DNA of 63,723 nucleotides, the filler included, from Nemertoderma westbladi (taxonomy: Eukaryota > Animalia > Xenacoelomorpha): assembly GCA_032718475.1 (NCBI GenBank). It is 4 parts of 4 records of this genome, joined end to end, with 100 filler letters (N's around TTAATTAATTAA, not from the genome) between each part and the next. Parts side by side here need not be neighbours in the genome. Positions count along the whole stretch, not along the records: positions 1 to 24,036 come from JAUCBJ010008005.1; 3 more parts are not named here. The stretch is one strand, 5' to 3'. The notes under the pieces are model-generated. The model saw nothing but the letters and a program-made list of their open reading frames with translations, had not been told where the DNA came from and did not search any database. Shown here one piece after another: positions 1,023 to 63,684 of the stretch. Numbering within the stretch: position 1 is the stretch's first letter; every line of letters begins with the position of its first letter. A program made the position numbers and the translations under genes.

Positions 1023-2898
1023 TCACAGCTATGAAACATCATCAGTGAGTTGGGGCATCATCCAGAGAATATTCCTAGCCTTCAAACTTCATCCCAAAGT
1101 GAAGCAAACTCGAGTTATCGTCGTTCAAAGAATTAGTCAATCAGGCGCCGTATCTGATGACCACGGTATGGGGGTGACTTGGGACCTCAACGCGAGATTC
1201 AGAACACCATCCAAAACATATTCGCATAAAATCTTATCACTAATTGTCAAGGCCTAGGTAAGTTTTCAGCGTTTGAATATTTGAGCCAATCAGGTGCCAG
1301 ATACAGTGACCACGGTACGCGCGTGACCTGAGACCCCAATGGAAGGTTCAGAGTACTGGCCAAAACATTTTCGCATCAAATTGTACCGTAAAATGTTACT
1401 GCATATCAGCAAAGTCACCTACCGGTATTTGATCAGCAAAAGATCAGGTCTGACTGTGTGATTTGGGTCTGATCATATTTTCCTTTGCATGCATAAGAAG
1501 CCCTTCAATGGTCACTATCCGCTACATTGATCTAATCCATATCGTCAGATAGCCCGTGTTGCTGTTATAAGATTTATTTTGATTTGGTGCGATTTGGGTA
1601 ATTTTAGTTTTTTTGGGGTAAACTATGGTATTAATAACTTCCAGTAAAATCCCAACGTTAAGAACATTGCTAGAAACGTCAATCATCTATAGCCTACAAA
1701 CTAAGGGTAACTGTCAGCCAGTTACTGTACATGGGCAGATGGGTATACTAAGTACAGGAGTTGGAGTACCCGGTACTTGGATATTCCTGTATTGACAATA
1801 CTCAACTATATGAAGATAGGGTACGTTTTGACTAAAATACGGCATCTGATGTAACGTTTTGACTAGGCCTATCTGCCAAAAGAACCTCCACTATATATGA
1901 CCATACATGTAGGCCTACCATACCTGCACCGGTGCTCACTACAGACTGTGGAGATAGCTACCGGCAAGAGGTGTTTGGTATATAGTTTTAGTCAGTAATG
2001 GCATACAGCAACTACTGACTTTATGATTTCATCAAGTTCATCAAACCAGGCTGACGACTCAGCCGTTTAATTAATTGCAGCGGGATTGGATAATTTATTA
2101 ATTAATTTGGGGAACTTTACTAATTAGTAAAATCGTTAATTAGTTTGATTCAAAAGATTTTAGAGTAATTATCATTTGTAAAATAGTAAACCGCTTTGAT
2201 ACACCTTGTGAATAAGGATTTGGGGGCGGGGGGGACAAAGCCCCCCCGCCAATTAGGTAATTAAGTAATTAGTTAATTACTAATTAACGGTAGGAGATAC
2301 GGCATCGGCGCCAGAGACTTTTTTGTGTAGAATAAAATTCCAAACAACTTTGTGATGTTACGTTTTTTCATAGCTCTTAGTGTTTTCGAGTTACGACGCT
2401 AATTAGTTTTCGGCTAATTAGTACTAATTAACAGTAATAGGAGGGCCATAGCGATGACTGAACTTTTTTTAGATCTTACCGAGATGAACAAAAAAAAACA
2501 CCGTTGCTAGGGGAAAAACCAAATACTTTTCGAGAAAAATCAATTAGAAATCTTTAATCGCTAATTACTAATTAATTAATTAACAGATTTTTTCCATATG
2601 GAGTATTAATTTCAAAGCCAGCTGCCATTTTATTAGCCCCTGAGTTTTTGATTATTGATAGTAACAATGTGTTGGCAAGCTGTATTTTTCGAGGTGTTTG
2701 TTATTATACATTTATTATAGGAAGGGATCTAGGGGTCTTAACCTCGAATGATAAGTTTATTTTACCGAAAATAACTTATCTTTTATTGGCGCAATTGTAG
2801 GACTAATCCCATCACATGCGTACTTTTTAACCGGGTAGTGTACAAATTTAGGAATCGCGTAATTTTTCTTGAAATTAATACTCCATATCTCAAGAACC

Positions 2899-2960
2899 GG
2901 TGGCCTAGTGGTTGTAGTCTCGGCTTCCACCTCGAGGTCCCAGGTTCGAATCCGACACCA
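2899..2960 (+). ncRNA. tRNA-derived Pol III promoter cassette (SINE-like head, Gly-TCC-like loop); not a functional tRNA
   Basis: A box TGGCCTAGTGG (2901-2911), B box GGTTCGAATCC (2943-2953), anticodon-like arm CTCGG-CTTCCAC-C(T)CGAG; no proper acceptor stem. Confidence 0.75.
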
Positions 2961-2999
2961 CGCTGATGAGACCCAGTAAGGTCGAAACGCGTACGTGGT
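2957..2999 (+). ncRNA. Minimal type I hammerhead ribozyme
   Basis: Stem I ACCACG(2957-62)/CGTGGT(2994-99); core CTGATGA (2963-69); stem II GACC/GGTC with loop CAGTAA; GAAA (2984-87); minimal stem III inside palindrome ACGCGT; GUA triplet, predicted cut after A2993. Confidence 0.85.
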
Positions 3000-3589
3000 T
3001 TGGAGAGATATGAGATATTAATTTCAAGAAAAATTACGCGATTCCTAAATTTGTACACTACCCGGTTATAAAGTACGCATGTGATGGGATTAGTCCTACA
3101 ATTGCGCCAATAAAAGATAAGTTATTTTCGGTAAAATAAACTTATCATTCGAGGTTAAGACCCCTAGATCCCTTCCTATAATAAATGTATAATAACAAAC
3201 ACCTCGAAAAATACAGCTTGCCAACATATTATTTTTCAATAGTGTTACTGTGTTAAACAGGTTAACGTTATTTTTAATTTTGTTGTAAATGTTGTCAGAA
3301 TGCTGGAATGTTATGCAGGGCCGATCATTAAGTATGTCTATGCATGCTGTCAATTTTAATATGTTTCGTAATTTTAATATGCTTTGTATTCGTTTTACAG
3401 TAGACACTATTACTATAATTTGGCGTCCAATAAAAAACGTCAACTTCAACTTCACGCTGTGTCGTGTTGAAAATTTGTTGGCATTAATTATTACAGGACC
3501 AACAGGTGAGATTTTTTAAAAACTTTAAGAAACCCAGTTCATCAGTCTCCAACATGTCTAAACATTAAATGTCCTCCAATTTTTGTTGC

Positions 3590-4160
3590 TTTTAATCCGT
3601 TCAAGCTGAAACTTGGCAGATATGTACTAGACCATTAGCTGTGGCATTCAAAGGGGGCTAAACAGTCTATAGTTCTCTTGTCTTCCACTAGAGAGCGAAA
3701 TGCCTGAAAGTGAAATTATTGACACATTCCGTTATTTATGATCCATACAAGCTGAAAGTTGTCAGATATGTGCTAGAACACATCCTGTATCTTTGTGGTC
3801 TCTGTAATCGGTCAGTCTGAGTTTTCCAGTATGTCGCTACAACTCGCTAGAGCGCGAAATTTATGAATGTATTAACCTTCAAATTCCATTGATCTTAATC
3901 TGTTTAAAGCTGAATCTTGGCAAATATGTACCAGACCACATGGTTCGTCTGTGTGAAGAATTTGATCGGTTCTCAGTTCTCCAGTTTGCCTCTAGAGGTT
4001 GAAATGTCTGAAAGTGAAAACTTTCTCTCATTAGGTTATTTTTTATCCATTCAAGCTGATACTTGGCAGACATGCTAGACCGTAGACCATACATAGGTAG
4101 CATCTTTGTTGGGATGGTATTCTCTCGGCAGTTCTTCAGTCTACCGCTAGTAGGCTGAAA
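3590..4160 (+). repeat. Degenerate ~145-155-bp tandem repeat, same family as 62820-63540
   Basis: Recurring CAAGCTGAAACTTGGCAGATATG...C(A/G)CTAGAGNGCGAAAT...CTGAAAGTGA blocks. Confidence 0.65.
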
Positions 4161-11567: not shown

Positions 11568-12824
11568 TTATATCAAACACAATCTAACAAATACAGTTGA
11601 ACGGGTCTTATATATATTGTGATATAAGTTATGTAGTTGGCTCGCGGTTATATCGCTTTCTTTTGCTTTGGGGTCCAATCGAAATACTTCATCACAGAAG
11701 ACATTTACCAATGTGGAGCCTGGAAACATCTTGGGTATTATTAACGAGATTTTTTTGCCGTAGGGGCTGCAGGTGAAGATCCATTCGAAACTGAAAGCGA
11801 ATATAATATCGTCCACACAGTTCGGAGGTGGAGGTGCCAGACCCCCTAAATGAGACTCTATATTCGCCGCTTCCATATCGTGAGATATGGGAAATATGAC
11901 ATCACTAACTGACACCCGGTCGCCGTAAAACGCAACGCAAGAGAAGGTAGGAGCTTTGTCTAAATTTCCAGCACCATACCAATCTAGTTCACCACCTGCG
12001 ATCAACGGATTCTGAAATCCAAACACTATATAAAGCAAATTACTTAAATCAGTTATATTTATGGTTGTTATTATTTCCTGGCTGGAGACGATAATAACAT
12101 ATTTGACATTATGAATTCGACCTAAAAGTCCCGCCTTCTGCAAAAACTCACCAACATTTCGAACTCCATCCCTGAAGTTCTTGAGGTCGCTGTTATATAT
12201 GTCGAACTGAATTATATTACCGTCGTAGTTTTTAGAGAATGAGAGGCAAGAAATTAAGTTTTGTTGTTTGGTTTGACCGCCAGCTGATGTTACCGGCATT
12301 ATATCACCATTCAACTTCACGGACGATGGAAAACATTTGCTGTAATCTCTTCGTAAACTATGAACGAGCTTCCATGATGAGGGAAGTAAAACCCCTGGAT
12401 TCAGACTATTAATGTTTAAAGATATAAAAGCAAATTTGGGCATCGTATATAAGTTATGGGCCCATTTCTGCAACTGTTTCTCAGTACGTGCCACTGCCAA
12501 TTCCTGTAATTCAGTACGTGCCACTTCCAATTCCTGTAATTTGAGGAGCGAAAAGTCAGCGGAAAATTCCAGCGCCTTCTGGTACACGATTCGTTCGCTC
12601 TCAGTCAGGGCTTGATTACCGCTAAGGAATAAATCCAATCGTCGTGGTCTCAATCTCAGGACATAATCTCCGGCTTTCGCCCATAACCTACACACAGGGC
12701 GAACATTACATATGTCTACAGCCGAAAGAAATTTAAATATGTGTTCTAGTAATTCAGGGAGTGAGAAAACTCTTTCAGACGCGCCTGGATGGCGAAATCG
12801 TTTTGATGGAGGCGGTGACGACAT
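11568..12824 (-). CDS. F-box protein with C-terminal FIST-like domain (divergent FBXO22-like), single exon
   Basis: ATG at 12824; F-box LPELLEHIFKFLSAVDICNVRPVCRLW; C-terminal VAFYGDRV...KMFPGSTLVNVF...STVFVRL resembles the FBXO22 FIST-C region. Confidence 0.8.
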   Translation of the reverse strand: MSSPPPSKRFRHPGASERVFSLPELLEHIFKFLSAVDICNVRPVCRLWAKAGDYVLRLRPRRLDLFLSGNQALTESERIVYQKALEFSADFSLLKLQELEVARTELQELAVARTEKQLQKWAHNLYTMPKFAFISLNINSLNPGVLLPSSWKLVHSLRRDYSKCFPSSVKLNGDIMPVTSAGGQTKQQNLISCLSFSKNYDGNIIQFDIYNSDLKNFRDGVRNVGEFLQKAGLLGRIHNVKYVIIVSSQEIITTINITDLSNLLYIVFGFQNPLIAGGELDWYGAGNLDKAPTFSCVAFYGDRVSVSDVIFPISHDMEAANIESHLGGLAPPPPNCVDDIIFAFSFEWIFTCSPYGKKISLIIPKMFPGSTLVNVFCDEVFRLDPKAKESDITASQLHNLYHNIYKTRSTVFVRLCLI

Positions 12825-14212
12825 CAGCACATCCACAGAGTACCGGTACTACAACAGTACTACACCAGACAACTTTACTGTACTATGGACAGACAGCATT
12901 TATGACAACAGTATTTATGAATCAGTCGATAAGACAGTCAGACAGTAGGGCTACCGGTGTCACAGGCGAAAATGTCCCCCCCCCCCCCCCCCCCCCCCGC
13001 CCAGGTTGCAGAGTATGGCAAGTGCACGCACCAGTGCACGCCTCAAAAATTTGTTGTGCACGCCTGAATGACCAGTACACGCCTTAAAAATTTGTTGTGC
13101 ACGCCTGAAAAATTTATTGGCCTACAAAAATGCACGCGTAAAATATTGTCTCGTCTGACTCTGACTGCAGACTGGACTGTAGAGCAAGAATGCCAGAATG
13201 CCCGATATAACTATAAGGCAGTATAAGGTGTCCATGCCTGTTGCTCTCCCACATGGACCTGCCCACATCCTTTGCCTGTACTGTATGCTCATTCAGTCAT
13301 TAAGTCATTACTGCATTATTACTGTATATTTTTTGCCAGTAGTTATTCTTATAAGCCAGTATGGCGATTGATTAGGCCTTAATTTCATCAATTCAAGTAC
13401 AAAAACCTCGAGCGTAGCGATAAGAAAATTTTTTGTACATAAACAGAAACACATCAGCAGACTGGCAGGCAGGAGCTGGGGAAATATCTTCTCTGTGCTG
13501 GGGGGTAAGAGCGCGTAAGAAAAGGGGGAAGAGGGGGAAAGAAAAGGGGTATGGATCTATAAATAGCATCCAATGGGACGCCTCTATTTTACGACCGTTC
13601 TATACTGTAAACATACAGCTGTCTACCTTATTGAGAAGTGGTAATACTACTTAGTTGCTAAACTTACCCCCCCCCCCCCCCCCTCCACCTATCATTACAC
13701 ACCTACTGTACTTAACCATACATACCCATTCCTATATACCTACTTACACGTACCCTCCCACCCACCTAAGCACGTCGACTTAACTGCACCCACCCACCGA
13801 CCTAAGCACAACTACTTAACTGTACCCACCCTCAAGCACGTCTACTTAACCGCACCCACTGTTAGCGCTACAATTCAATTTTGCAAATAATGAGCCTAAA
13901 CTTACGACCAGCTGTATATACAAGAAACGGGCGCTAGTAACCGTTACTTGTACTCGTAGAATAATTTATTGTTGCATATAAAACTGGCGTTACTATAAAC
14001 AGATTTGAAACCCCGTATAAATAGTTCCTTTAAGTTGTGTGTCTGGACTGCTTACGTCTTTATGTCTAACTGAAAACTGTATTCATTCGAGACTTATGGA
14101 AGTCGGATTTATGAAACTGACAATCCGAGATACCGATGTCACAGGAATTAATTTTGTGCACGTATTAAAATATGTTAGTTTGCTATTAATATTAGGCGTC
14201 ATATGACAATAC

Positions 14213-17965: not shown

Positions 17966-20256
17966 TTAATTTGGATTAATGTGTTCAAAGGAATACAGTG
18001 TTGGTTTTTTACGACCATAATCGCCTGATTCCTCGCGGGCTATTTCCAGCAAACAGAGCCGTCCAATTGGTCTATTCAGTGTTTGAGGTACGAATTCTAA
18101 TTTCTTCTTATCCTTCTCCCTTTGTTTCTTCTTTCTCATTACGATGAGGTCGACTGATCTCACAAGTCCGTCAGCGGATGTATGGACAACTGTGACACGT
18201 CCAGTTTGCCATCGCTTCCTCGGGATATCGTCGTCGACTATTAGTACTACGTCATCAATTCGAAGGTTTTCCTGACGACTAAACCATTTGGTGCGCAGTT
18301 GGAGAGATGGTAAGTAGTGTTTCTCGAAGTGTATGGCGAATCTATTGGAAAGTAATTGCATCATCCGCCATGTTTGACGTAAGTATATATGGGAATCTTC
18401 CGAATTAGAAACAGGTACCATAACGATGGGTTTCTTCATCAGGAAGTGGGCAGGTGTCAGCGACTCCAATGACTTCGGATCAGACGAAGCAGGCATCAAT
18501 GGACGGTCGTTAATGTAAGCTGCTATTTCTTCCAGAAAGGTGCGAAGTAACTCATCTGTTAGGTATGCCCCGCATGGTATCACGTGGTGGAACGCTATTT
18601 TAACACTTCGGATCATCCGCTCCCAGCTACCTCCCCACCATGGTGCGTCAGCTGCGTTGAACGTCCAAGTTGCCGCGTTTACACGCAAGTAAGCTACAAT
18701 ACCTAGTCCAACCTTGCTCGCATCACTGAAGACATGTAACTGGTACTCATAATTAGGTAGTACATGGCCAAAGTAGGCCCGTGGTACCTTAAAGTCCTCA
18801 ATTTCTGGCAAAGTCTCCTCCCAAGCTTGCCAACGGGCCAACAACTTACCAGTCAACGGGTCATCCCAGGAATTGTTTTCTTCCCACATATCCCGAACTA
18901 TACACCTAGCCGTCAAGATAACTGGGCCAATGAAACCAATGGGATCAAAATAGGTGCTTAATATGCTAAGGCATATTCTCTTAGTACGTTTACTCTCACT
19001 TCTCACCTGTAGTTTGAATGACATTTCATCAGTTTCGGCGTTCCATCTTAAACCTAATGTCTTTGTTTCCGGTAAATCATCACGTGTCAAATCCAGATTT
19101 TTCGCACCACGGTCTTCGAATGGTATTGAGTCCAGGAACTCTCTGGAGTTGCTAGCGAACTTCGTGAGCTTGAATCCTCCTCGTTTAAGACATTCTACTG
19201 TACCTTTCGCTATGCTTATCGCCTCCTCAACGGTTGGAACAGACTTCAAGTTGTCATCCATATATATATCTTTCTTGATATTTTCTAGGACGGCGGGCGA
19301 GAAATCATGTTGGTTATCGTCCGCCGTGGTATGAACAATGAAGCATGAGTTAGATGGGCTGGAATTAATGCCAAACGCTTGTACCGTCATCCAATATTCC
19401 TTCAGAGGTTTTCTAAAGTCTCCGTCTGGCCACCAAAAAAACCGGAGGCTATCTCTGTCTACTTGTAGGGCCTTCACTTGTAAAAACATGCCTTCAATAT
19501 CTGAGGCGAAGGCGATCGAGTATTGGCGAAGGCGAATCAAGATTCCTAGAAGGGATTGCAACATGTTGGGACCAGTCATTAATTCTGAATTCAGAGACTG
19601 TCCTTTATATAGAGCTGAAGCATCAAAGACCACTCTCACAGTATCTGGCTTGTCGGGACGTTCCACATAGTGATGAGTTATATAGTATGTCCGATTTGAT
19701 TCTGGTGTCCTTGTTGGCACTTCTTCAGCATACCCTTTTGTGATGAACTTCTCCATCTGTTCCCTATACATGTGCCATGCGTTATGGTTTGCAGCCAATC
19801 GTCGCTTTAATTGTTCCACTCTCTTCTCTGCTAGAATTCTGTTGTTATGGAACTTGGGATCCCGAGAGCGCCAAAGTAAACCTATTTCATACTTACCTTC
19901 ATTCTTTAAGAATTTTGTGGTAGTCCGTTGTATGTCACGGGATCGCTCATCTTCAACAGATAAGGCTTTCTCATAAGAAGTTGGTCCCTCCCTTTCTTGT
20001 TTCATTATACTTACGAGTTGTTGCTCAGCATTATATTCAGCCTGAGCTCGCAAGATTTCACTTAATTTGTCATGTTCATCGTTAACAAAATTTCCTTGCA
20101 AAGAATTATAATTCTGCATTTGATAATTAATATACTGTTCGTCATCAATTAACTCTGTATCAGTCTCATCATTCTCTAGGTCTATGTTTTGGTCATTGTC
20201 AGTCGATAAGACATTTTCAAGTGATGAGTCATAGCTAAGAACTTCGTTTACCTTTA
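17966..20256 (-). mobile_element. BEL/Pao LTR retrotransposon pol remnant (RT, partial RNase H, integrase C-half, DUF5641-like tail)
   Basis: VRVVFDASA, SLNSELMTGP, YMDDNL, LHVFSDASKVGLG, APWWGGSWERMIRSVK, RTKW...DDVVLI...WQTGRV...DGLVRSV; frame stays open upstream to the LINE tail at 20257. Confidence 0.9.
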
Positions 20257-20835
20257 TAATAATAATAATAATAATAATATATATTTATTTATATAGCGCC
20301 AAATTTACATAATATACGTACTCTAAGGCGCTGACAACACATAGTACACAGTAATTAATAGTTCGTGACTGCAATAGCAATAGTTATGAAATAAAAAAAA
20401 AAAATCAACTAAAATAATGTAGTAATTAAAAACCAACAATAAAAACATCATAAAATATAGTAAAAACAAACAATAAAAACGATCATCGTAAATATTGTAG
20501 CATATAGTAAAAAACAAACAATAAAAAAACGATCAACGCAAGCATTCCAGTGCGGGTTAAATTAAAATGTAATTAATGGCAGAATAGAATATAATGGCAG
20601 TGATAATGAATTAAAATTAATAGTAAAAACAAACAATAAAAACAACTGTTATGGTGGACTTTTTAAGATTTAAAATATATTGATGTTAAAAACAATCGTG
20701 TATACATCCAGTACTTAAGTTAAAATTAAATTTAAAATTGAAAGTAATTAATTAAAAAATGTCAGTCGTCCATAAAAACAAATAAATAATGTTTAGTTTA
20801 GATTTAACTTCATATGCACAGCGTAATATAAGACA

Positions 20836-23800
20836 CTAGTTCACGTGGTATTCCAGATTGTACAGGTGAGTTTTTAGACGTTTCTTAAAAATGCCCACAT
20901 TCGATGATTCGCGTATGGCCGGAGGCAATGCGTTCCATACAGTTGGAGCAGCAATGGAGAACGATCGCCTACCATAATGTTCCGTATTGTAGCGAGGGGC
21001 CACGAGTAAACCCAGCCCGCTGGATCGCATCTCGCGGATGGGTAGGTACGGAGTTAGTAAGTCGCTTAGATACTTCGGGGCACAGTTATTTACGCATTTC
21101 CAAGTTAGCAAGGCAATTTTAAAGTCTATACGGCGAACTATAGGTAACCAGTGCAATGCTTTTAGGGTTGGAGTTATATGGTCCCTCTTCTTTACACCAC
21201 ATAGAAGTCGAGCCGCGGAGTTTTGAACGTACTGTAGTTTCTGAATGGATTTTTTTGGCAGACCGTAGTAGAGAGAATTATTGGCGTCAAGCTTTGATGT
21301 TACAAGTGCGTGTATAAGTATTTCCATGTTTTGTTTGTTGACGTATCGCTTTATCTTTGAAAGATTCCTTAAATGGAAGAATGCCTCACGAACGGTGATT
21401 CCTATTTGCTTGCACATTGTAAGCCGAGAGTCTAATTCGAACCCGATATTGCGAACGTTTGGGCTGCACGATATTATGTCGCTCCCAATGGTCAGTACTG
21501 GGGGGTCCTGCTGGATGCCGAACCTGGACTGCAATAACAGGACTTTAGTTTTATCGGAATTCATTTTTAAGTAGTTTTTATCCATCCACTCCAGCACATC
21601 CACGAGGCAACTCTCAGTTACTTTTACAGCGCTGTTTAATTCAATTGGCTTGAAAATCAAATATAATTGGGTATCATCCGCGTAGAAATGACAATGTAGA
21701 CCATGCCGCTTTATTACAGCTGATAGTGAACGCGTGTATACCGTAAACAGAATCGGACCCAATACCGAACCCTGTGGTAGTCCATAGCGGAGGTGCTTTG
21801 CGATGGAATATGTATTCCCAATACGCACCTGTTGCGAGCGCTCCGATAGATATGATACGAACCATTTAAGGGCGACGCCATCAATGCCAATATCGTGTTT
21901 AAGTATCTGCAATAGTTTGCTATGTTCAACCGTGTCGAATGCCGCGCTTAAATCAAGTGTGATAAACAAACACACCGAACCATCGTCAATTCCACGAAGT
22001 ACCGTATCAGCAACAGATAACAAAGCAGTTTCCGTACCGTGTAATGGGCGGTAGGCACTCTGGTAGGGTTCATGCAGACCGTTCAGATTCATGTGGTGCT
22101 TTAACTGCTCTACCACCACCTTCTCAGTTAATTTGGAAATGTACAGTAAGTTCGAAACCGGTCTAAAGTGATTGAGTATTTCCGGGTCTAATCGCAATTT
22201 CTTTAGTATTGGTGTGAGAATTGCTTCTTTGAAACGCGAAGCCACAGTTCCAGTTCGTAAAGATAAGTTAATTATCAATGTAATGACCATCAATAGTGGT
22301 TTTAAGGACATCTTTAGTATGCTGGTTGGAATCGGGTCACGTGGACTTGATTTTGACTTCGAGTCGCTTATCAGTTTTTCAACGCCGTCGCTCGTTACGT
22401 CACAAAATTTGTGAAGGACCGGTGCTGGAGGCGTCCCGGACGGCGCGGGAGGCACCCTGGACGGTGCGGGAGGCGTCCCGGACGGCGCCCCGGATGGTGC
22501 AGGAGGTACCCTGGTCGGAGCGAGAGGCGCCCTGGATGACGTGGGAGGCGTCCCTGACGGTCCTTGAGGCGTCCCGGACGGCGCGGGAGGCGTACCAGAT
22601 GGCCTGGGAGGCGACCCGCATGGCGTGGGTGTAGGCACCCCGGATGGCGCGGGCAGCACCCCAGACGGCGAGGGAGGCGTCCCGGATGGCGTGGGAGGCA
22701 TCCCGGATGGCCTGGGAGGCGACCCGCATGGCGTGGGTGGAGGCACCCCGGACGGCGCGGGCAGCACCCCAGACGGCGAGGGAGGCGTCCCAGGTGGCGT
22801 GGGAGGCGTCCCGGATGGCGTCCCGGATGACGTCCCATTGTGGTTTAGACCATCTCGAATAGATTTAATCTTATTATCGAAGTAGTTTACAAATCTGTTA
22901 GCTAATTCCAATTCAGAATTATGTCTCGGTAATATAACCTTATTTCCTCTGTGTAAAACTTTATTGACGACTTTAAATAGTGTTTTTAGGTCCTCTGAAT
23001 TGTTCTTGATTATCCCGCTATAATATTGTTCCTTAGCCGTTGAGATGGCCGCCGCTACCTTGTAACATTGGTTTCTGTATTCCAAGAGGTCAACATGCAG
23101 TTTCGTTGTCCGATATTTGCGCTCCAATCGGCGTCTAGTTCTCTTCTCATTGGCTATTGACTCGGTATACCATGGTGCCATTGGACGCTCAATTACTGTC
23201 TTCGTTACCAATGGTGCATGTCTATCCAGTAGTGATAATAGTGTTTTGTCATAGAGTTCTACCAGTTGGTCAACGTCATGCGGTAGTGGGTTTAAACATA
23301 ATGCTGATGTTTCGATATCTGAAATCAAGTTGCCCATGTTTATACGGCTCAGTTTCCTGTGCGAAATAATCTTTTTTACCGCAATAGGTTTTGGTAGTGA
23401 TATATCAAAACATATTAAGTAGTGATCCGAGATACCGATGTCACACACCCGTATATCCTTAATTATATCGATATCGTCTTTGTGCATCAACACCAAATCT
23501 AAAGTGTGTCCTTTGCGGTGTGTTGCCTCATGTAATAATTGTTCCATGCCAAAACAGTTCACAACATCTAAGAAACTTGCAGATTCCTTATTTGTTGAAT
23601 CATCCACCCAGAAGTTAAAATCTCCCATAATAATTAATTTCCCCGTTGCCACCATAAGTTGTTGCAGTATATCACTAAATTCCTCAAGGAACATCGATGT
23701 ATTTAGTTTGTTTACTGTTGAGGGATAAGTACGGTACAGAATTAACAGGCGGAAGTAGGCACCAAGCTGCGTTAGTGTCAATTCAATATATTCGAAAGAT

Positions 23801-24036
23801 CGATATGTAGCTCGTACGATCTTGAATGGTTCCATATCCAAACTGCCCTTGTAAGCGCAGCCAACTCCACCACCTGATGTCCATGTTCTGGGTTCGTGTG
23901 CGAATTTAAATCCAGCAGGGCACGTTTCCTCCACGACAGAGTCATCCTCATCCTTGCCTGTCAGCCATGTCTCCGTAAGAGCAAGTATGTCAATATTCAA
24001 GTCGACTATATAATCCTTAATTATTGCAGCCTTATT
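20836..24036 (-). CDS. LINE ORF2: APE endonuclease + reverse transcriptase (5' partial)
   Basis: DILALTETWL, MGDFN, HRKGHTLDLV, ISDHY (APE); FRPVSNL, LDLSAAFDTV, GLPQGSVLGPILF, YADDTQLY (RT); open frame over 1050 codons up to the gap. Confidence 0.92.
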   Translation of the reverse strand, partial: NKAAIIKDYIVDLNIDILALTETWLTGKDEDDSVVEETCPAGFKFAHEPRTWTSGGGVGCAYKGSLDMEPFKIVRATYRSFEYIELTLTQLGAYFRLLILYRTYPSTVNKLNTSMFLEEFSDILQQLMVATGKLIIMGDFNFWVDDSTNKESASFLDVVNCFGMEQLLHEATHRKGHTLDLVLMHKDDIDIIKDIRVCDIGISDHYLICFDISLPKPIAVKKIISHRKLSRINMGNLISDIETSALCLNPLPHDVDQLVELYDKTLLSLLDRHAPLVTKTVIERPMAPWYTESIANEKRTRRRLERKYRTTKLHVDLLEYRNQCYKVAAAISTAKEQYYSGIIKNNSEDLKTLFKVVNKVLHRGNKVILPRHNSELELANRFVNYFDNKIKSIRDGLNHNGTSSGTPSGTPPTPPGTPPSPSGVLPAPSGVPPPTPCGSPPRPSGMPPTPSGTPPSPSGVLPAPSGVPTPTPCGSPPRPSGTPPAPSGTPQGPSGTPPTSSRAPLAPTRVPPAPSGAPSGTPPAPSRVPPAPSGTPPAPVLHKFCDVTSDGVEKLISDSKSKSSPRDPIPTSILKMSLKPLLMVITLIINLSLRTGTVASRFKEAILTPILKKLRLDPEILNHFRPVSNLLYISKLTEKVVVEQLKHHMNLNGLHEPYQSAYRPLHGTETALLSVADTVLRGIDDGSVCLFITLDLSAAFDTVEHSKLLQILKHDIGIDGVALKWFVSYLSERSQQVRIGNTYSIAKHLRYGLPQGSVLGPILFTVYTRSLSAVIKRHGLHCHFYADDTQLYLIFKPIELNSAVKVTESCLVDVLEWMDKNYLKMNSDKTKVLLLQSRFGIQQDPPVLTIGSDIISCSPNVRNIGFELDSRLTMCKQIGITVREAFFHLRNLSKIKRYVNKQNMEILIHALVTSKLDANNSLYYGLPKKSIQKLQYVQNSAARLLCGVKKRDHITPTLKALHWLPIVRRIDFKIALLTWKCVNNCAPKYLSDLLTPYLPIREMRSSGLGLLVAPRYNTEHYGRRSFSIAAPTVWNALPPAIRESSNVGIFKKRLKTHLYNLEYHVN
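22425..22835. repeat. GC-rich ~21-bp minisatellite in frame within LINE ORF2 (PPAPSGT-like repeats)
   Basis: Unit GACGGCGCGGGAGGCGTCCCG with variants; translated as a Pro/Ser/Gly-rich tract. Confidence 0.9.
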
Positions 24037-24136
24037 NNNNNNNNNNNNNNNNNNNNNNNNNNNNNNNNNNNNNNNNNNNNTTAATTAATTAANNNNNNNN
24101 NNNNNNNNNNNNNNNNNNNNNNNNNNNNNNNNNNNN
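24037..24136. other. Assembly gap/spacer
   Basis: N44-TTAATTAATTAA-N44. Confidence 0.98.
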
Positions 24137-25495
24137 CTTTATATGCCTGAGGGATTCTTTACCAACAAAATCAGTCGGTTTATTCGGCTTTATGAAGAAA
24201 TCTAAACCGGCCTGGTAGGGATTTTTATCTAAATTCATTTCCAGCCCCCAAACCCGGAAACCTTTCTCTAACCGCAACACGTTGATGGCGTACTGCCCGA
24301 AGTCGGCTATTCCGAACTCGCTTCCGGCCTCCAGTATCGCCGCGTACAAGGGCCCCATACTGCTCGGCGGCACGTACAACTCCCAACCCAACTCCCCGGT
24401 GAAGGACAGCCGCAGGGCTCGAACCCTGACCCCGGCCAGCGTCACATCCCGACAACTCAGGAACTTAAACCCGGAGTTGGAGAGATCCTCCTCGGGGGGC
24501 GCCAACTTCCGGAGGACGTCCCGAGCGAACGGCCCCGCAACGGACAAACACTGCAGACTCTCGGTCGCGTTGTCTATAACGAGTCCGTCGCTAAGCGACC
24601 AGCGACGCGCGTGCTCCTCGATCCAGCGACGATCGTGGTTCTCCGACCCGGAACCGGTGATCAGGAAGAACCGGTCCTCGGCCAGTCGGGTCACCGTGAC
24701 CTCGGCGTAGACCCGGCCTCGGGGGGTCAGCATGTGGCAGATGTTAGCCGTGCCGACCTTGGGCAACGAGTTGGCGACCAACCGATCGAGAACCTCCGCT
24801 GAAGTCGGCCCGCTGATCTCCAACTTAGCGAACGGCGTTAAATCGGTAACGCCGACGCGTTCTAGAACCGTCCGGACTTCCCGACCCACCGGACCGTGCC
24901 AGTTGCACCGCCGGTAGCCCGGCGCGTACCCCGCGGTATCCCCCGGCAACGCGAACCAACTGGGCTGCTCCCACCCCGCGTGGAAGCCGAACTCGGCTCC
25001 TCTCGCCTTCGTGGCCTCGTAGACCCCGGAGACCCTGCGGGTAGGCCGACCCGCCCATCGCTCCTCCTTGGGCCAACCCACCGCGTTGTTCATCCCGTAG
25101 GACTCCCTCGCCTTCGCCGACGTGTACTCCCTATCGGTCCACTTCCCGTAGCGGTCCGGGTCCAACTCCAACAGATCGTACGGCGGCTCTCCGTTGAGTA
25201 TCCACTCCGCGAGGTACTTTCCGGCGCCCCCGCTGTGCACGATCCCGTAGGCGAACCCCACCGCGCACCAGTAGTTAGTGGCCCCCTGCACGGGCCCCAG
25301 CATGCTCAGCACGTCCGGCGTGTAGGTTATCGGGCCGCAGACAACCCGCTGTATGTCCGCGGACCGCAGCAACGGGACCAGGTTCATCGCCGCCTCCAGG
25401 TTCACCATAATCCTCTCGATATCCGATTCGTATAATTCCTTACCGAACCCCGGGGGGACGCCGTCCACCCAGCTGTCCTGAACTACCATCGCCTC
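24137..25495 (-). CDS. DMGDH: Dimethylglycine dehydrogenase, exon 2 (3' truncated by gap)
   Basis: Acceptor ttgtag|GAG GCG ATG; [72 protein letters not shown]. Confidence 0.93.
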
Positions 25496-26055
25496 CTACA
25501 ATAGATAATAGTAAATAATTATATAAAATAAATAATTAAAATGAAATATAAAGACTATAATAGGAATTATTATTAATAGCGGGGATTACAAAGTAAATAA
25601 TCTTATTGAATATCAACACTATGGACCGGTCGTAACCGGAAGTACAATATCGTCATAATGACGTGCAGTATTGCTTGTGTTGTATCGTGTCTCGGCTGTG
25701 TCATTCGTATGGTCTGGCTGAGTCTGGAATGGCTTTGTATTACAATGCATTTAGGCTCAACAAAAGTCGTAAATTCCTCAATATATGTTTCGTTGTATAT
25801 CGGCTAATGAATCATTATTATTAAAGAGAAGTGAACTAAAACTCACTTTGATGATTATAATTACTGTTTCAATATTCTTCAAAATTATATATTCAATTAT
25901 TTCAGTTCAGGAAAACTGACAGTTTCAGTTTGCAACACTAATAATAAATGTTCTGAAACAAATTCAGTTATAATTTGTAAAAAGTGATTTAACTAAAAAT
26001 TTATTATATTTAGTGTTCAATAAATTTGTATTGTTTTGTAACATAACGTGTGTAG

Positions 26056-26442
26056 TATGGCATACAAAAAAAAAATGTTTCTCAATGTATTTATTTTCTC
26101 AATGTTTTTTTTTCTCGATGTATTTAATTTCTCAATGTTTTTTTTCTCGATGTATTTAATTTCTCAATGTTTTTTTTCTCAATATCTGATTGGTCAAACC
26201 GTGTATTTATTTTCGCAATGTTTATTTTCTCTATATCTGATTGGCCAGCCTTGCCTTTTTTTGCTCAATATCTGATTGGCCTAGCCTACCGGTTCAATAG
26301 GCAGAGATTGCAGAAGAACCTATTGTACTGCTGTAGAGGCAGAAGCTGGAGGTGCGACCAATCAGATATTGAGAAAAAATCATTGAGAAAATAAATACAC
26401 TGAGAAAAAAACATTGAATATTAATACTAAATGTATGCCATA
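26056..26442. mobile_element. MITE in the DMGDH intron, TIR TATGGCATACA, 6-bp TSD GTGTAG
   Basis: GTGTAG|TATGGCATACA...TGTATGCCATA|GTGTAG; internal inverted subterminal repeats TTTCTCAATATCTGATTGG / CCAATCAGATATTGAGAAA. Confidence 0.75.
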
Positions 26443-26477
26443 GTGTAGTGTAGTGAGTATTAATTGAACGAACTAAC

Positions 26478-27410
26478 CTTACTCTCGTAGGGTCCAACCA
26501 GCAGACCATCGCGTTCCTTCCGTAAATAGTAGGAACCCTCCAAATCTCGGATCACAGGGAACTCCTTACCCAACTGCTTGATCTCCGGGATCGTCGATGT
26601 AATAACGTACTGATGGTGTATCGGAACCAACGGATGCTCCAACCCCGCCAGCCGTCCCACCTCCTGGCCCCAGAACCCAGCCGCGTTCACCACGCCCCTA
26701 GCGGAGCGCACCGAACCGCAGTCGGTCTCCACGTCCCAGGAACCGTCGACGCGCTCGTTCAACCCGGTCACTGCGACCGGAGCCGCGATCCGAGCTCCGT
26801 ACATCCGGGCCCCGGCGGCGAACGCCATCGTCAGCGAATACGGGTCGATATGGCCGTCCGATGGGGTGTACAACCCGCCCAGAATGCCCTCCATGTTCAT
26901 AAACGGGCACATTTTATGGACCTCGTCTGTTGTAATTAAACGCTGCGGGGTCTTCTGCCAACCAACTCGCGACATCTGGTATTTGGCTTCGTCTACGCGA
27001 GTCTCCGTGTTGAGAATGCGAATACTTCCAGGGTCGTGGAACCCGACTGCCTGCCCCGTCTCCTGTTCTAGAGTTCGAAACAAGTTGATACTGTAGTAGT
27101 GTAAGTTCTTTACGTTTATCCCGGGGTGGAAGTACGTTGTGAGTCCCGCTGCGTGCCAGGTTGATCCGGCTGTCAGCTCAGATCGCTCCACTAGCACCAC
27201 GTCTTTGAGGCCCTGTTTGGCTAGATGGTAGGCTATGCTAGCCCCTACCGCCCCGCCCCCTATGACTACGATTTCGGCAGACTCCGGGAGGTTTGGATGT
27301 CTGGTCTTGTGGTTCCATCGTCTAGGTATCAGTCCATTCCGACCACGAGCAGTTTCACTCCGACACGGATTCAGAGAAGATCTGAACGCTGACAATAACG
27401 CAGAACTCAT
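26478..27410 (-). CDS. DMGDH: Dimethylglycine dehydrogenase, exon 1 (transit-peptide-like N-terminus + FAD-binding domain)
   Basis: ATG 27410; [38 protein letters not shown]; donor AAG|gttagt joins in frame to exon 2 ([14 protein letters not shown]). Confidence 0.93.
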
Positions 27411-27605
27411 TGCATTTCCTGAGCAATCGGTCAAACTAAACTACAATACAGCAATAACTACCTCATATAATAAAGTAAACTACGTAGAACTACCGGCAGA
27501 CCGGTACAAAATAATTGGACTGTACCGGGGATCCGCTATTCTGTTATAACAACAGCTTGTCAGCTGGTAAACAGCATCCCGGAAGTAGGCCTTATCAATT
27601 TTGAT

Positions 27606-35580: not shown

Positions 35581-36792
35581 CTAAATAAATTCCACACCTT
35601 CGTATTTAATATTTCCGGCTATTTTAGTCTCAGTAACTAGAACGTTCCCGTCCACGTTAAATACCGTTATATATGTCGAAACATCGCCCGAGTTCTCCTC
35701 CGACTTCAAGGCGACGACGAGTTGTTCCTGCGAGTTCGGAACGAACTTAAACGAGGAGAAACCGCGGAAGAGGTTGAGCGGAGTGACTTCGGCCACATTG
35801 AGTCGGGTGAACGATTCGTCGGCGGTTATCATTATGTTACCGGCGCGTCGCTCGTCGTCCATCTCGTTGTATCGGAATCGCGACACTCTGCGGGGAAGAA
35901 AGATCCACCGGTCCCGCGGGGCCGACCAGCATACGGCCTCGTGGATGATGTATCCGGGGGCCGCGATCCCGGCGGCCGAGCGTAGCGAGTCGTAACGCGT
36001 CGACCAGTCCATGTGGACCACCTGCCCGGTCACCGAGATTGCCTTTACCCACTGCGGGTCGCGATTTAACGGCTCCCCTTCCGGGCTCGTCCATTCCTTA
36101 CCCAACCCGCCCACGTACAGAACACGATCCTTTACGGTCATCCACTCCGCTTTGAACCCCTTACTAACAGTCCCGTCACCGTCTGCGAGAATAACCCAAG
36201 GATAAACGCGATTCCCGACTACCTTATAAACAATTCCAGTTCGATCGTCCACCGTTAATAATTCCCCGTTAAACACGACGAGTTCCGATAACTCCATCCC
36301 TCGCCCGCCTAACGAATACTTCGACTCCAACCGCAACGGCTCTCGATCCCAGACAACCGCGACTGTCTTCAGATCATAGGAAACCTGCAGATCACCTTTC
36401 AGTAAATAACTAACCCATAAATTTGGTGCATCTTTTACTTTGGAATTCTGATCAAGGTCGGAAACTATCGCAATTCTGTAGGTATAGCCAAAAGAGTTCC
36501 GCAACGGTAAGGATAAAGGGTAGGTGTAGTTGTAATTCAATACCGGTGTAGAGATTGTGTTACTAGGAGAACTCGTAGATGGAATTAATATAAGTATGAG
36601 ACATATAAAAGAGAAAACGAATAATATAAATACAATTCTCGAATGTTTCGTTAGCAGACGAGTGATCCTTGTTGACATATCCGACCTGTGGTGTATCCCC
36701 AGAGGGGCACGCACTTTCGCATTCCAGTCTCGCATTTTGTCGTCAGCCAAATTGAAATTTTTATCGGAACACAACAAAGACGTATCTGTCAT
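35581..36792 (-). CDS. CANT1: Soluble calcium-activated nucleotidase 1 (apyrase), single exon
   Basis: N-terminal TM anchor, YNYTYPLS, IAIVSDLD, GRGMELSELVVFNG, VDDRTG, KGFKAEW, GYIIHEA, ALKSEE, C-terminal KYEGVEFI. Confidence 0.95.
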   Translation of the reverse strand: MTDTSLLCSDKNFNLADDKMRDWNAKVRAPLGIHHRSDMSTRITRLLTKHSRIVFILFVFSFICLILILIPSTSSPSNTISTPVLNYNYTYPLSLPLRNSFGYTYRIAIVSDLDQNSKVKDAPNLWVSYLLKGDLQVSYDLKTVAVVWDREPLRLESKYSLGGRGMELSELVVFNGELLTVDDRTGIVYKVVGNRVYPWVILADGDGTVSKGFKAEWMTVKDRVLYVGGLGKEWTSPEGEPLNRDPQWVKAISVTGQVVHMDWSTRYDSLRSAAGIAAPGYIIHEAVCWSAPRDRWIFLPRRVSRFRYNEMDDERRAGNIMITADESFTRLNVAEVTPLNLFRGFSSFKFVPNSQEQLVVALKSEENSGDVSTYITVFNVDGNVLVTETKIAGNIKYEGVEFI

Positions 36793-37077
36793 TATGGTTG
36801 CTGGGCTGGTAAACCCTCTCGGTCAAACTTTACACAAGCGAACTGATAGACTTGCAGTCTTTGTCAGTTCAGCAGTTAGTTGTGGTAAAAAAGAACAAAC
36901 TCAACATTTTCACACTTCTGCACTTATGTAACTGGTTCTGGTCTGGTAGTGGTAGGCCTACTACAGTACCGGTACTACAGTATACAGTATAAGCATAAGG
37001 GTACCGGTACATGATGGTAGGGTACGTTACGTACTAAAAGGTAGAACGATCTATAACGGGCTATAACGATCTATAAC

Positions 37078-45613: not shown

Positions 45614-46588
45614 AAATAATTTGCAATATTCCTCGTCAGACGCTATCCCCTCATAACTAATTATTAAATTATAACAAATTATAATATAAGCCAATTTATA
45701 ATGCAAATGTCAGATATTTTTATGATTTATGTTTTGCAGACTTATTACACTGTAACTGTATCGACTGAACAAAAGTCGATGAAGGAACTGAACTGAAAGA
45801 ACTGACGAACTGAAAGTACCGACTGTACAATATACAATATATACATAAAAAAAAACACTGTTTGTAGGAAATGTATCTTCTCCTACAATTATAAACGAAA
45901 TAACGCGAAGTTTTGCAGAAAGCATGTCTAATAGATTTTCCCTATGGGGTGTCGAGTCGACAGAATTTTGATGGAGTGAATTCTACGCTTATGAGCGGTT
46001 ATTCTAGAATTAATTTAACTGTTGCTAGGCAACCAACAGGTCCCTCGCAACCAAAACCTTGCATACACAACTAGATCCGATAATGAACCTATCATCAAAG
46101 TTTCATCCAATTCCATCAACATTAAGTGCAAGAAGTTGTGTGTACAAACAAACAAACAAACAAACATAAACGTGTGAGAAATAAGGACACCCAACTTGGA
46201 ACCGTTCAATGAGAGAAGGATTTCACTTTCAGACATTTCGACCTTTGCGGCAAACTGTATCGATGTGAATGTGTATGGAATATCGTCAGAAGAAGCCAGT
46301 TTTCTAGTAGGCCTACCCTACATCCTGTACGTGGTACAGGTATATACCAATATTCAGCTTGTGTACCGGTACGTCCAATGCGTCCTTTAATAGGATTAAA
46401 GGACTATTTTAAAAACAATAAATAATAATAAAGAAAACTTCAGTTCCTTATACGCCGTATACATTATAGAATTGTTTATTTATAATTACCACATTCCGTA
46501 TTATCCTTATCCATTTTAATTAGGCCTACCGCCCGGTAAAACAAACTCTATCGTGCGACTGTTCGCTGTTGTATGTTCTTATAACGAA

Positions 46589-47731
46589 ATGAAAATTAGC
46601 TTATTAAAGCGGATCCGGATACTCTATATATTTACTTCGCTTATATTAATAATTTTATTAATTTCATGGCTGACCACATTCCAATGGTGGGAAAAGTTGA
46701 GTAACACCGTATTGGCACCGGTACCCGAGCAGCAGCGTCACACTTCAACAGAGATATACTTCTTAAAGGTTCATAAATGCGGTAGTGAGACAGTGAGTAC
46801 CGTGCTGACATGGTTCGCACTACGCAATCATCTGTCCATCGGAGTTCCCAGGGCTCCAGAAACCCGAATGGGTTGGCCATTCAGTTTCGTTCCGCGGCAC
46901 ATGATGAAACTAGCGGATGGTGTCGACCCAAACAGCAACCCGGTCGATGTCATTTACGTTCACACTGTTTACAACGCGACAACCGTTGACACAGTAATGA
47001 CACCAGGATACAAGAAAGTCGCAATAATCAGAGAACCCAGCAGCCACATAGAATCCTATATGGACCATTTATGCGAATACGTTTCCACATGTCTAGCCAT
47101 CAAAAAACGAGGTGGCGACCCTTTGGATGAGTACCTCGTTAATCCAGACGGATTCTATATAATGGGAAATAAACTATTTCCTCTAAGAAACCCTATTATG
47201 TTCGATTTTGGGTTCCAATTTGCGAAAGAGGCTGATATTTCTTTAATGTATGAAGCTTTACTCTCGATAAACCGAGATTTTGATTTAGTGATGATAATGG
47301 ATCGATTCGACGAATCAATGATTCTATTAAAGAGGTTGATGGGTTGGACTGTAAACGACATCATTTATATGCACATAAATAACCGAAATAAAACGAATTC
47401 CCGGACATTGACTGCTAACCAAACCGATCAACTAAAAACTATAAATAAGGCAGATTTCATGCTTTATGATTTTTTTCGTGATAATTTCAACGGTCTAATA
47501 AAAGCCTATGGGGTGGATAATATGGAGGCGGATGTGGCGGAGTTTCGTAAACTTAGGGAACAAGTTGTTGGTGGTTGTACTCCAAGAGGTTTGGAGGATG
47601 AGTTTAATCGCAATGACCTTAGTGATAGATGTAAAGTACTTCAACAATGGAATCCCACATTAATTCGGTTTATACAACAAGGGAAGTACAATAATTCGGG
47701 TAGGGCCCATGTATTGAAAGCGAATCATTGA
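46589..47731 (+). CDS. Galactose-3-O-sulfotransferase family protein (type II Golgi membrane), single exon
   Basis: ATG 46589; TM ILYIFTSLILIILLISWL; FLKVHKCGSETV (5' PAPS loop), IIREP, DFDLVMIMDRFDESMILLKRLMGW, NKADFMLYDFF. Confidence 0.88.
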   Translation: MKISLLKRIRILYIFTSLILIILLISWLTTFQWWEKLSNTVLAPVPEQQRHTSTEIYFLKVHKCGSETVSTVLTWFALRNHLSIGVPRAPETRMGWPFSFVPRHMMKLADGVDPNSNPVDVIYVHTVYNATTVDTVMTPGYKKVAIIREPSSHIESYMDHLCEYVSTCLAIKKRGGDPLDEYLVNPDGFYIMGNKLFPLRNPIMFDFGFQFAKEADISLMYEALLSINRDFDLVMIMDRFDESMILLKRLMGWTVNDIIYMHINNRNKTNSRTLTANQTDQLKTINKADFMLYDFFRDNFNGLIKAYGVDNMEADVAEFRKLREQVVGGCTPRGLEDEFNRNDLSDRCKVLQQWNPTLIRFIQQGKYNNSGRAHVLKANH

Positions 47732-58479: not shown

Positions 58480-59180
58480 GATAACTTTGATAAGACATAA
58501 TGTTATATGAGTGTTCCAGGATAACTTTTGATCAATTTGAATTCCTAGGTACTTAACCGACGCTGACATAGTTAAAGATTTTTAGTGTTAATTTTTATAG
58601 AGTTTTGAAATTGGGATCTTTCTAGTTTGTTTGACGCTACCATAAATTCGTTTTTTTTTGTATTTATTGATAATCTATTGGAAATTAGCCAGTCTTGTAT
58701 ATTTTTAAGTTCTGTGTTTATGGTCGTCACTAAGGAAGTCGCGTCATTGTTTCTACAAAGAAAACTTGAGTCGTCCGCGAAAAGTTCTGTATATAATTTA
58801 GAAGCATTTGGTATGTCGTTAATATATAGTAAAAAGAAAATGTAACCTAAGATTGAACCCTGTGCTATCCCGCATGTGATTTTTTGAAAGGTTGAAATTG
58901 AATTATCAATTTTGGTAAATTGGAGTCGATTTTGGAAATAATTTTTGAAAAGTTTTATTTGGAATCCGCGAATTCCGTAGTGTTCAAGCTTTTTTACAAG
59001 GATCGAGTGGTTTACTGTGTCATATGCCTCTTTTATATCCATATATATTATACATCCATTTAACCGGGTGTCTAATATATCACCAATTTTTTCCGTCATT
59101 GCCAAAATAGCTTGAAATGGGGATCTTTTTTCCGGAATCCGTATTGGTGAGTGTATAGGAGGACAAATTTTTGCAGGTAA
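58480..59180 (-). mobile_element. Degenerate LINE reverse transcriptase fragment (CR1/L2 group)
   Basis: YMDIKEAYDTVNH, KLEHYGIRG, CGIAQGSILG, LYINDI, LFADDS, WLISNRLSINTKK. Confidence 0.85.
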
Positions 59181-62662: not shown

Positions 62663-63684
62663 TCTAATCGAATATACCGGTATATAAAAATCAATTGTCT
62701 GTGTATCTGTTTGTCATCGGCTATACAATCAAACCCATCTCGATGAAATCTCGCTTACTATAGCTTGTTAGAAAGGTCTCACCCTAACTCGTTGCAACGT
62801 AATATTCAGAGCCATCTGAAGTTCCACCATCTGCCGCTAGAGGGTGAATTGTCTTAATTGAAAATCTTCTCTAACTTTGTTATTTACAATCCGTTTAAGA
62901 TAAAACTTTGCAGTTGTCTAATTTAGCAAAGGCTGCATTTTTACAGAGACACAGATAAATCTGCATTTCTCAGTCTGCCGCTAGAGGGCGAAATCACTGA
63001 AAGTGACCACCTTCTCCAACTTTGTTATTTACAATCCGTTTAGACTGGAACTTGGTAGGCATATATTACAGCATAGGCTATATCTTTACGGAGTCTTAGA
63101 GTCGTATACAGTTCCCCCGTCTGCCGCTAGATGGCGAATTGTCTGATAGTGAAAACCTGATCTCATTTGGTTGTTTTTAATTCTTTTCAGCTGAAACTTG
63201 GTAGGTATCTACTACAGCATAGGCTTAATCTTTACGGAGTCGCTGAGTCGTCTATAATTCCCCAGTCTTCAGCTAGAGGGCGAAATGTCTGAAAGTGAAC
63301 ATTTTCTCGAAATTTTGTTATTTACATGTTTACTGATTAAGCTGTACTGTTTAAGCTGAAACTTGACAAGCATAGGCATCTTACTTCACCTTCACCATAA
63401 ACTCCATCTTTACAGAACTGCAGCGCCATGCTGCATTTCACCAGTCGCAGTCTGCAGGTAGAGGGTAAAATGTCCGAAAGTGATCATTCTCTCGAAATTA
63501 TGTTATTTACAATAACCTGAAGCTAAAGTTGAAACAGTTATCTCCTATGGGGCGGTGTTTTATTTTATGATGGTGTCTGTTTCGATGTAGTTCTCCAATC
63601 TGCGAAACATTTCTCCACACATATTCATATATCCTCTGCACGTGCACTAGAAAGCTGTGACACGAAGGGCCACAGGCTCTCTAG
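62663..63684 (+). mobile_element. Non-autonomous Helitron-like element carrying ~145-bp tandem repeats
   Basis: A|TCTAAT...TATATAAAAAT...GTCTGTGTATCTGTTTGTC start; 3' hairpin CTGTGAC-ACGAAGG-GCCACAG then CTAG|T. Confidence 0.7.

Follow-up and report, generated by a model that had tools for sequence, protein, structure and literature searches.

Does a hammerhead ribozyme whose third helix is self-complementary cleave on its own, with a second transcript, or with a second copy in the same RNA? The question is raised by a locus of Nemertoderma westbladi (GenBank assembly GCA_032718475.1) that lies in a window, by which we mean the whole stretch of DNA analysed, of 63,723 nucleotides, filler included, joined from parts of four records. 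Positions 2984-2994 read GAAACGCGTAC, with the palindrome ACGCGT at 2987-2992. A sequence-only reading of the window had called ACGCGT a self-complementary stem III and had proposed that the ribozyme is activated by dimerisation in trans, as a concentration-dependent switch. The self-complementary stem was confirmed, and it sits inside a complete type I hammerhead.

The hammerhead occupies 2957-2999 of the plus strand. Judged by sequence and fold it is a canonical type I ribozyme, for which self-cleavage is predicted, with the cut after 2993. Stem I (6 bp, ACCACG/CGTGGT) pairs 2957-2962 with 2994-2999, the core CTGATGA (2963-2969) is followed directly by stem II (GACC/GGTC, 4 bp, with a 6-nt loop), and GAAA (2984-2987) leads into CGCG and then TA at 2992-2993. 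The type I features are all present, namely CUGANGA, GAAA, the UH core, stems I and II, and an open stem I. The Rfam model HH9 matches 2947-3014 (E = 2.4e-4, 26.6 bits) under its gathering score of 52, and a search of the whole window with Rfam returned no matches at gathering score. No other core in the window has a paired stem II. Among 300 Markov-simulated windows, such a motif appeared in one and its palindromic version in none. The minimal hammerhead of Penelope-like elements is described, in the accessible part of the source, as having a long helix II, an extra base between positions 9 and 10.1, and no helix III insert (PMC4209133). The window ribozyme has a stem II of 4 bp and no extra base after CTGATGA.

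How would helix III form in a single molecule? The sequence-only reading had drawn it as two base pairs closed by a 2-nt loop. Such a loop is sterically implausible given the minimum loop size, so helix III of the monomer is better read as one base pair and a palindromic CGCG tetraloop. In the predicted monomer ensemble stems I and II are formed (P 0.71-1.0; stem I 0.71-0.98), and the A15.1-U16.1 pair has P 0.0. When two strands are folded together, the minimum free energy structure is a symmetric double hammerhead (-31.7 kcal/mol) in which the stem I strands are swapped and the two plus-strand copies of 2987-2992 form a shared 6-bp helix III. The intermolecular palindrome pairs have P 0.91-0.99 in this predicted homodimer. 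Moreover, the native CGCG ranks first of 256 four-base loops for dimer stability (-6.4 kcal/mol against a median of -2.0), and only three of the 256 lie at -5 kcal/mol or lower. Since the core fixes A15.1 and U16.1, chance would give a palindromic 4-nt loop in 16 of 256 cases and the best-ranked dimer loop in one of 256. The folding model is one without tertiary contacts or magnesium, and its dimer energies are estimates. Competing pairings appear in longer contexts, where the palindrome-pair probability falls to 0.13 when the dimer is that of 2894-3004 or 2869-3028 and to 0.0 when it is that of 2894-3128. The fold of 2894-3128 also shows stem I at a probability down to about 0.5. Tail positions 3035-3040 are a perfect 6-nt complement of the cut-site region (2988-2993); they could mask the cut site in cis, and the match may be due to chance.

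The predicted geometry, a helix III of 1-2 bp with palindromic loop pairing in a double hammerhead, fits the dimer-dependent class of the newt ribozyme and the axolotl HHR_Amex1. HHR_Amex1, which has the same helix III geometry, is reported to cut 6% in 1 h as a monomer and far more as a tandem dimer, as far as the available text of that report goes (PMC7229834). A palindromic helix III of 1-2 bp is described as usual in metazoan type I hammerheads by a source that also cites the logic that multimers are cut and monomeric circles spared (PMC4209133, available sections), and palindromic stems III have been noted in many repeat ribozymes (PMC3088659, likewise in part). Because the palindrome is a known default in animal type I hammerheads, its presence here is largely explained. 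Cleavage likely depends on a dimer formed through the palindrome, a known behaviour, and here folding and the axolotl geometry support what the sequence-only reading had claimed. The precedents it named fit in part. The newt ribozyme is described as pairing two tandem copies within the same RNA molecule (PMC6155905, accessible text), and the Penelope-type precedents are minimal hammerheads, whereas the window ribozyme is canonical.

It is unlikely that the monomer cuts by itself, either slowly or with the aid of a protein, with contacts between loop 1 and loop 2 stabilising a helix III of 1 bp and the palindrome merely accelerating the reaction. The canonical 6-bp stem I with its distal extension and the 6-nt loop 2 speak for such a route, as do the residual cutting of the axolotl monomer (PMC7229834) and the Poseidon ribozyme, which the accessible part of its report presents as protein-assisted (PMC11167929). 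However, the monomer model leaves helix III unpopulated, and the top rank among 256 loops for dimer stability would be unexpected were dimers unimportant. Most invertebrate retrozyme ribozymes are said to cut as monomers in the available text of PMC7761336, whereas the window ribozyme is predicted to be dimer-dependent.

The ribozyme belongs to a unit whose order is lead, head, ribozyme, tail, A-rich linker and next lead. The unit is 411 nt long by a contig loop from run X4 and 412 nt by arithmetic on the window, has a GC content of 0.40, and lies within the size and composition limits of retrozymes (non-coding, 150-450 bp, GC < 50%, a type I hammerhead). The lead of the plus-strand copy (2869-2891) forms, in the fold, the left arm of a 23-nt inverted repeat internal to the unit; with its partner at 3005-3028 it encloses the head and ribozyme domain. 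The fold of 2869-3233 has a z of -4.1. Within the head, on the plus strand, are exact consensus matches to a Pol III A box (2901-2911) and, at tRNA-like spacing, to a B box (2944-2952). They form the only such pair in the window, and pairs of this kind occurred in six of 200 simulated windows. Although both boxes are present, ARAGORN and Rfam called no tRNA in the head, and the position of the tRNA 3' arm is taken by the ribozyme. From the boxes we infer that the unit is transcribed by Pol III. Downstream lies an AT-rich non-coding tail (3005-3225, plus strand, GC 0.335) that ends about 20 nt before the usual 3' end of the element; at 3225 contig depth drops and a separate flank contig begins. 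Pfam gave no match for a 139-aa frame across this tail. A scan for T runs placed the first T4 after the promoter at 3125-3128 on the plus strand. The sense strand of the unit has no other T4 3' of the promoter, and this one may act as a leaky Pol III terminator.

A promoter-type head followed by a hammerhead is the layout of Sm-alpha and Sj-alpha of Schistosoma, which the accessible sections of two reports describe as a tRNA-derived Pol III-type head preceding a type I hammerhead, multi-copy and often tandem (PMC2770079, PMC6765202). The likeness is one of layout, and it extends to copy multiplicity and to a cut after which the released unit carries the promoter at its 3' end. Unlike the schistosome elements as described there, the window element has a helix III of 1 bp with a palindromic loop and a Penelope-type inverted copy. 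The best reading of the element is as an Sm-alpha-like SINE/non-LTR retrozyme. It also resembles the metazoan non-LTR retrozymes of coral, mussel and axolotl, and newt satellite 2, in its canonical type I hammerhead, its non-coding unit of 150-450 bp with GC < 50%, and its head-to-tail junction (PMC7229834, in part). However, the available text of PMC7761336 describes retrozymes without promoters, and that of PMC6765202 describes newt satellite 2 as transcribed by Pol II, whereas this unit carries exact A and B boxes of the Pol III type.

Two copies make up the locus: one on the plus strand (2869-3225) and, before it, a partial one in inverted orientation (2868-2596). The sequence-only reading had counted one copy locally, which is true of the ribozyme but not of the element, since the second copy lies directly upstream. 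On the minus strand at 2596-2868, this 5'-truncated copy comprises the tail, the tail-to-head junction and the lead of the next unit, and it pairs with 3005-3233; the resulting inverted repeat of 229 nt, 97% identical, flanks the head and ribozyme. Its last 55 nt (2596-2650, minus strand) extend past 2651, the commonest 3' end of the element, where 21-24 contigs per run exit into unlike flanks. This extension holds the A-rich linker and the start of the next unit, with 2596-2615 the reverse complement of 2869-2888, and it appears to resemble a Penelope 'tail'. The inversion junction probably falls within a 12-nt microhomology (2869-2880) of the unit's own internal inverted repeat, and mismatches between the arms at 3013-3015 locate the switch.

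Penelope-like elements are described, in the part of the source at hand, as carrying an inverted 5'-truncated copy at their 5' end together with a tail of 30-40 bp at one of the two ends (PMC8557442). The window element shares the inverted 5'-truncated copy beside the 5' end, the one-sided extension, the lack of a clear target-site duplication and the palindromic helix III (PMC8557442, PMC4209133, both in part). By this analogy, the 229-bp inverted repeat reads as a Penelope-type insertion signature. Unlike the Penelope-like elements of those descriptions, the window element has no ORF, its ribozyme is canonical rather than minimal, and its extension is about 55 nt rather than 30-40. At the locus no target-site duplication was found, the best match being a 6-nt T-rich word. 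A Penelope origin has been argued for animal retrozymes, according to the accessible text of a recent preprint (bioRxiv 10.64898/2026.07.22.740005). No autonomous partner was identified, and the window holds no other match to the 3' end or pseudo-LTR of the element.

Could the inverted repeat instead form the 229-bp ends of a MITE or foldback DNA transposon that captured a tRNA-ribozyme piece at its centre? Such length and identity, centred on the hammerhead motif, speak for this idea. However, upstream of 2869 other copies have the lead rather than an inverted tail (10 contigs, X1), inversion points vary between copies, and the target-site duplication is lacking; we rejected a transposon of this kind as extremely unlikely. 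The inverted tail is joined to a head truncated at 2909-2954 in five of 15 displayed joints in one table and in three of 12 in a second, with 62 and 33 further joints beyond those displayed, as in the pattern described for Penelope-like elements (PMC8557442); most of the inversion joints have sides of 23-52 nt, often less than 30 nt. Twin-priming and snap-back models of the inversion may fit the contig and locus data equally.

The surroundings of the element are themselves repetitive. The stretch 3225-3245 on the right resembles the usual 3' end of the element, which suggests priming or joining by microhomology, and the right flank is itself a lower-copy repeat. The left flank (2100-2595) is another multi-copy AT-rich repeat with many TAATTA words. 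A diverged tandem repeat of about 146-158 bp at 3585-4074 adjoins the element, and a similar-looking array occurs at 62822-63326, at the far end of the window.

Other copies were seen in contigs of the public runs X1, X2, X3, X4 and X6, five of the seven runs containing the stretch; X1 and X2 come from one sample. X1, X2 and X3 each gave 1,537-4,095 contigs, and since about 400-430 of them per run leave into other sequence, the family is multi-copy. As a rough estimate it would comprise several hundred copies, summed depth being no measure of copy number. Contigs extend past 2596 into the tRNA-like head, as tail-to-head joints in X1, X2 and X4 and as loose ends in X1 (13 contigs) and X3 (4). 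Relative to the ribozyme core, summed contig depth is 22-23% at the junction (2644) and 25-33% at 2650 (X1, X3). The window's own minus strand spans the tail-to-head junction at 2891-2596, and in contigs of other copies what precedes 2869 matches the stretch from 2616 onward in reverse complement. One 441-nt contig of X4 has ends that overlap by 30 nt and closes into a loop of 411 nt. That run bears another organism label and its RNA nature is guessed, and terminal redundancy of at least 30 nt of any kind also yields a closed contig loop; the loop shows the junction, not circular RNA. The tail-to-head junction is real, and it is the junction that the contigs demonstrate, not arrays with two ribozymes. 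Since contigs join tail to head, the family is likely to be able to pair two ribozymes in one RNA.

We therefore come to the partner. The probable answer, in our judgement, is that the palindrome is helix III of the hammerhead in a repeat of about 411 nt, and that it restricts cutting to double hammerheads, which would arise when read-through transcription puts two successive units on the same RNA. Pol III would transcribe the unit from its internal A and B boxes. The monomer would fail to close helix III, and two copies would swap stem I strands and share the predicted 6-bp helix. A single ribozyme would leave its RNA mostly uncut, be it a unit-length circle or a transcript of this locus; RNAs with two would be cut to unit length and could be circularised. 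New copies would be inserted by a Penelope-like reverse transcriptase, as inverted repeats and partial tandems. On this view, what the palindrome registers is the number of ribozymes on one RNA, not their concentration. The window locus keeps both boxes and could give a single-ribozyme RNA, predicted to be mostly uncut.

The predicted energies allow pairing within one RNA to be compared with pairing between two. For two separate RNAs, the predicted Kd is 0.17 µM at 10 °C, 0.2-0.5 µM at 10-15 °C, 1.5 µM at 20 °C and 31 µM at 37 °C. A crude unstructured-chain model puts the effective concentration in cis at about 30 µM (3e-5 M), which equals the Kd at 37 °C and exceeds it 20-160-fold at 10-20 °C. 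By this model, cis pairing should win where one RNA holds two units. In trans, the predicted dimer fraction at 10-15 °C is 3-10% at 10 nM and 22-41% at 100 nM, and at 20-37 °C it is about 1% or less at 10 nM. Cellular RNA is assumed to amount to 5-10 g/L. Plant retrozyme RNA is given as 0.1-1 ng per µg total RNA in the available text of PMC7761336, and a hand estimate that combines these levels with the assumed RNA concentration comes to about 4-75 nM. At 4-75 nM the dimer share would be below 1% at 37 °C and could reach roughly a third at 10 °C. Pairing in trans needs RNA near the Kd.

Several observations stand against pairing within one RNA. This locus has a single ribozyme, and the T4 at 3125-3128 could stop most transcripts before the next unit. 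Competing pairings arise in the longer contexts, the head is not called as a tRNA, and eight of nine Xenopus retrozyme dimers are reported as uncleaved in vitro in the accessible part of the preprint (bioRxiv 10.64898/2026.07.22.740005). Some of these points favour cleavage between RNAs: transcripts would be mostly monomeric, ending at the T4, and cleavage between two of them would rise with family-wide Pol III output and remove the promoter head, giving negative feedback. We consider this unlikely. On its side are the one ribozyme at this locus, the T4, which if an efficient terminator would leave most transcripts with one ribozyme, and a CGCG that is the strongest possible dimer loop and is common to all copies as part of the palindrome. 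The fall of the predicted Kd at 10-15 °C would also help, and cleavage in either cis or trans has been reported for Sm-alpha (PMC6765202, available text). However, with a Kd of 1.5-31 µM at 20-37 °C no more than about 1% of RNA at 10 nM would be dimeric, the monomer has already formed stem I (P 0.71-0.98) and must exchange it, and tail-to-head junctions are common. A bimolecular step would, moreover, give a graded response and not a switch. The tail-to-head contigs, the micromolar Kd and this graded step all speak against the concentration switch in trans that the sequence-only reading had made the main mode. Read as a whole, an element driven by Pol III and mobilised by Penelope, whose single-ribozyme, T4-ended transcripts cut one another as a temperature- and dosage-sensitive, protein-free brake on its own spread, is equally a doubtful proposition.

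Is the palindrome kept by selection? The family is young. Across X1-X4, 12 of 428 positions vary at >=1% of summed depth; none of them lies in 2917-3012, and ACGCGT has no variant at that level. Position 2992 is changed in one X6 contig (401 of 6,171) and in one X1 contig (92 of 521,193), and in the X6 contig the catalytic core is also altered, as rows of equal depth indicate. Palindromicity is thus conserved in other copies, the check that the sequence-only reading had proposed, and the outcome that would have refuted that reading, a non-palindromic stem III in most copies, did not occur; but because the whole family is near-uniform this invariance is weak evidence of selection. The window copy has two peculiarities: at 2899 it differs from almost all others, and at 3069, in its right arm, it has a rare variant. 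These are changes in or near this copy alone.

Near-uniformity also bears on whether cleavage matters at all. The ribozyme could be a passenger from a Penelope pseudo-LTR, dispensable in its activity and still intact through recent amplification, which we hold to be very unlikely. The family varies little anywhere along its length, Poseidon insertion in vitro is described as needing no ribozyme cleavage (PMC11167929, accessible text), and the inactive Xenopus dimers point the same way. Against this, the core is intact, the stems are canonical and the palindrome is optimal for dimers; the lack of variable positions in 2917-3012 is a weak hint in the same direction.

A pattern scan for a B box with a hammerhead core returned four viral and 49 metagenome loci, of which 51 of 53 are without hammerhead stems, and none of the 53 belongs to the tRNA-headed hammerhead family. 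The other two (L035 and L038) are one locus in two records. They hold an unrelated minimal hammerhead at 1501-1570 that has the same ACGCGT helix III, with an extra base before a 6-bp stem II and a 5-bp stem I. The part of the metagenome contig around it is eukaryote-like, and L035 folds back on itself nearby.

The rest of the window is repeat-rich, with LINE and Pao fragments alongside host enzymes. Within 17966-24084 and 58572-59180 lie part of a Pao/BEL retrotransposon, a LINE frame of 1082 aa with endonuclease and reverse transcriptase, and one more fragment of a reverse transcriptase. Host genes occupy long uninterrupted frames at 24089-27440, 35581-36822, 46520-47731 and 11568-12848, which suggests intron-poor genes; their products are an FAD-dependent dehydrogenase with a folate-binding domain, an apyrase, a galactose-3-O-sulfotransferase and an F-box protein. 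The apyrase matches animal proteins at 47-57% identity.

A literature search that took in few subscription papers, and in which some supplements were unreadable, found no description, outside schistosomes, of an element that combines a tRNA-type head, a dimer-type ribozyme and Penelope-type inversions. One young family of N. westbladi appears to bring together an internal Pol III promoter that is intact, a ribozyme with a likely need for a partner, and the scars of Penelope-type insertion. The element makes a useful test case, and it bears on two open points, how animal retrozymes are transcribed and how they are mobilised. Finally, trans cleavage, if it occurs in vivo, would provide a natural example of an RNA that limits the copy number of its own family.
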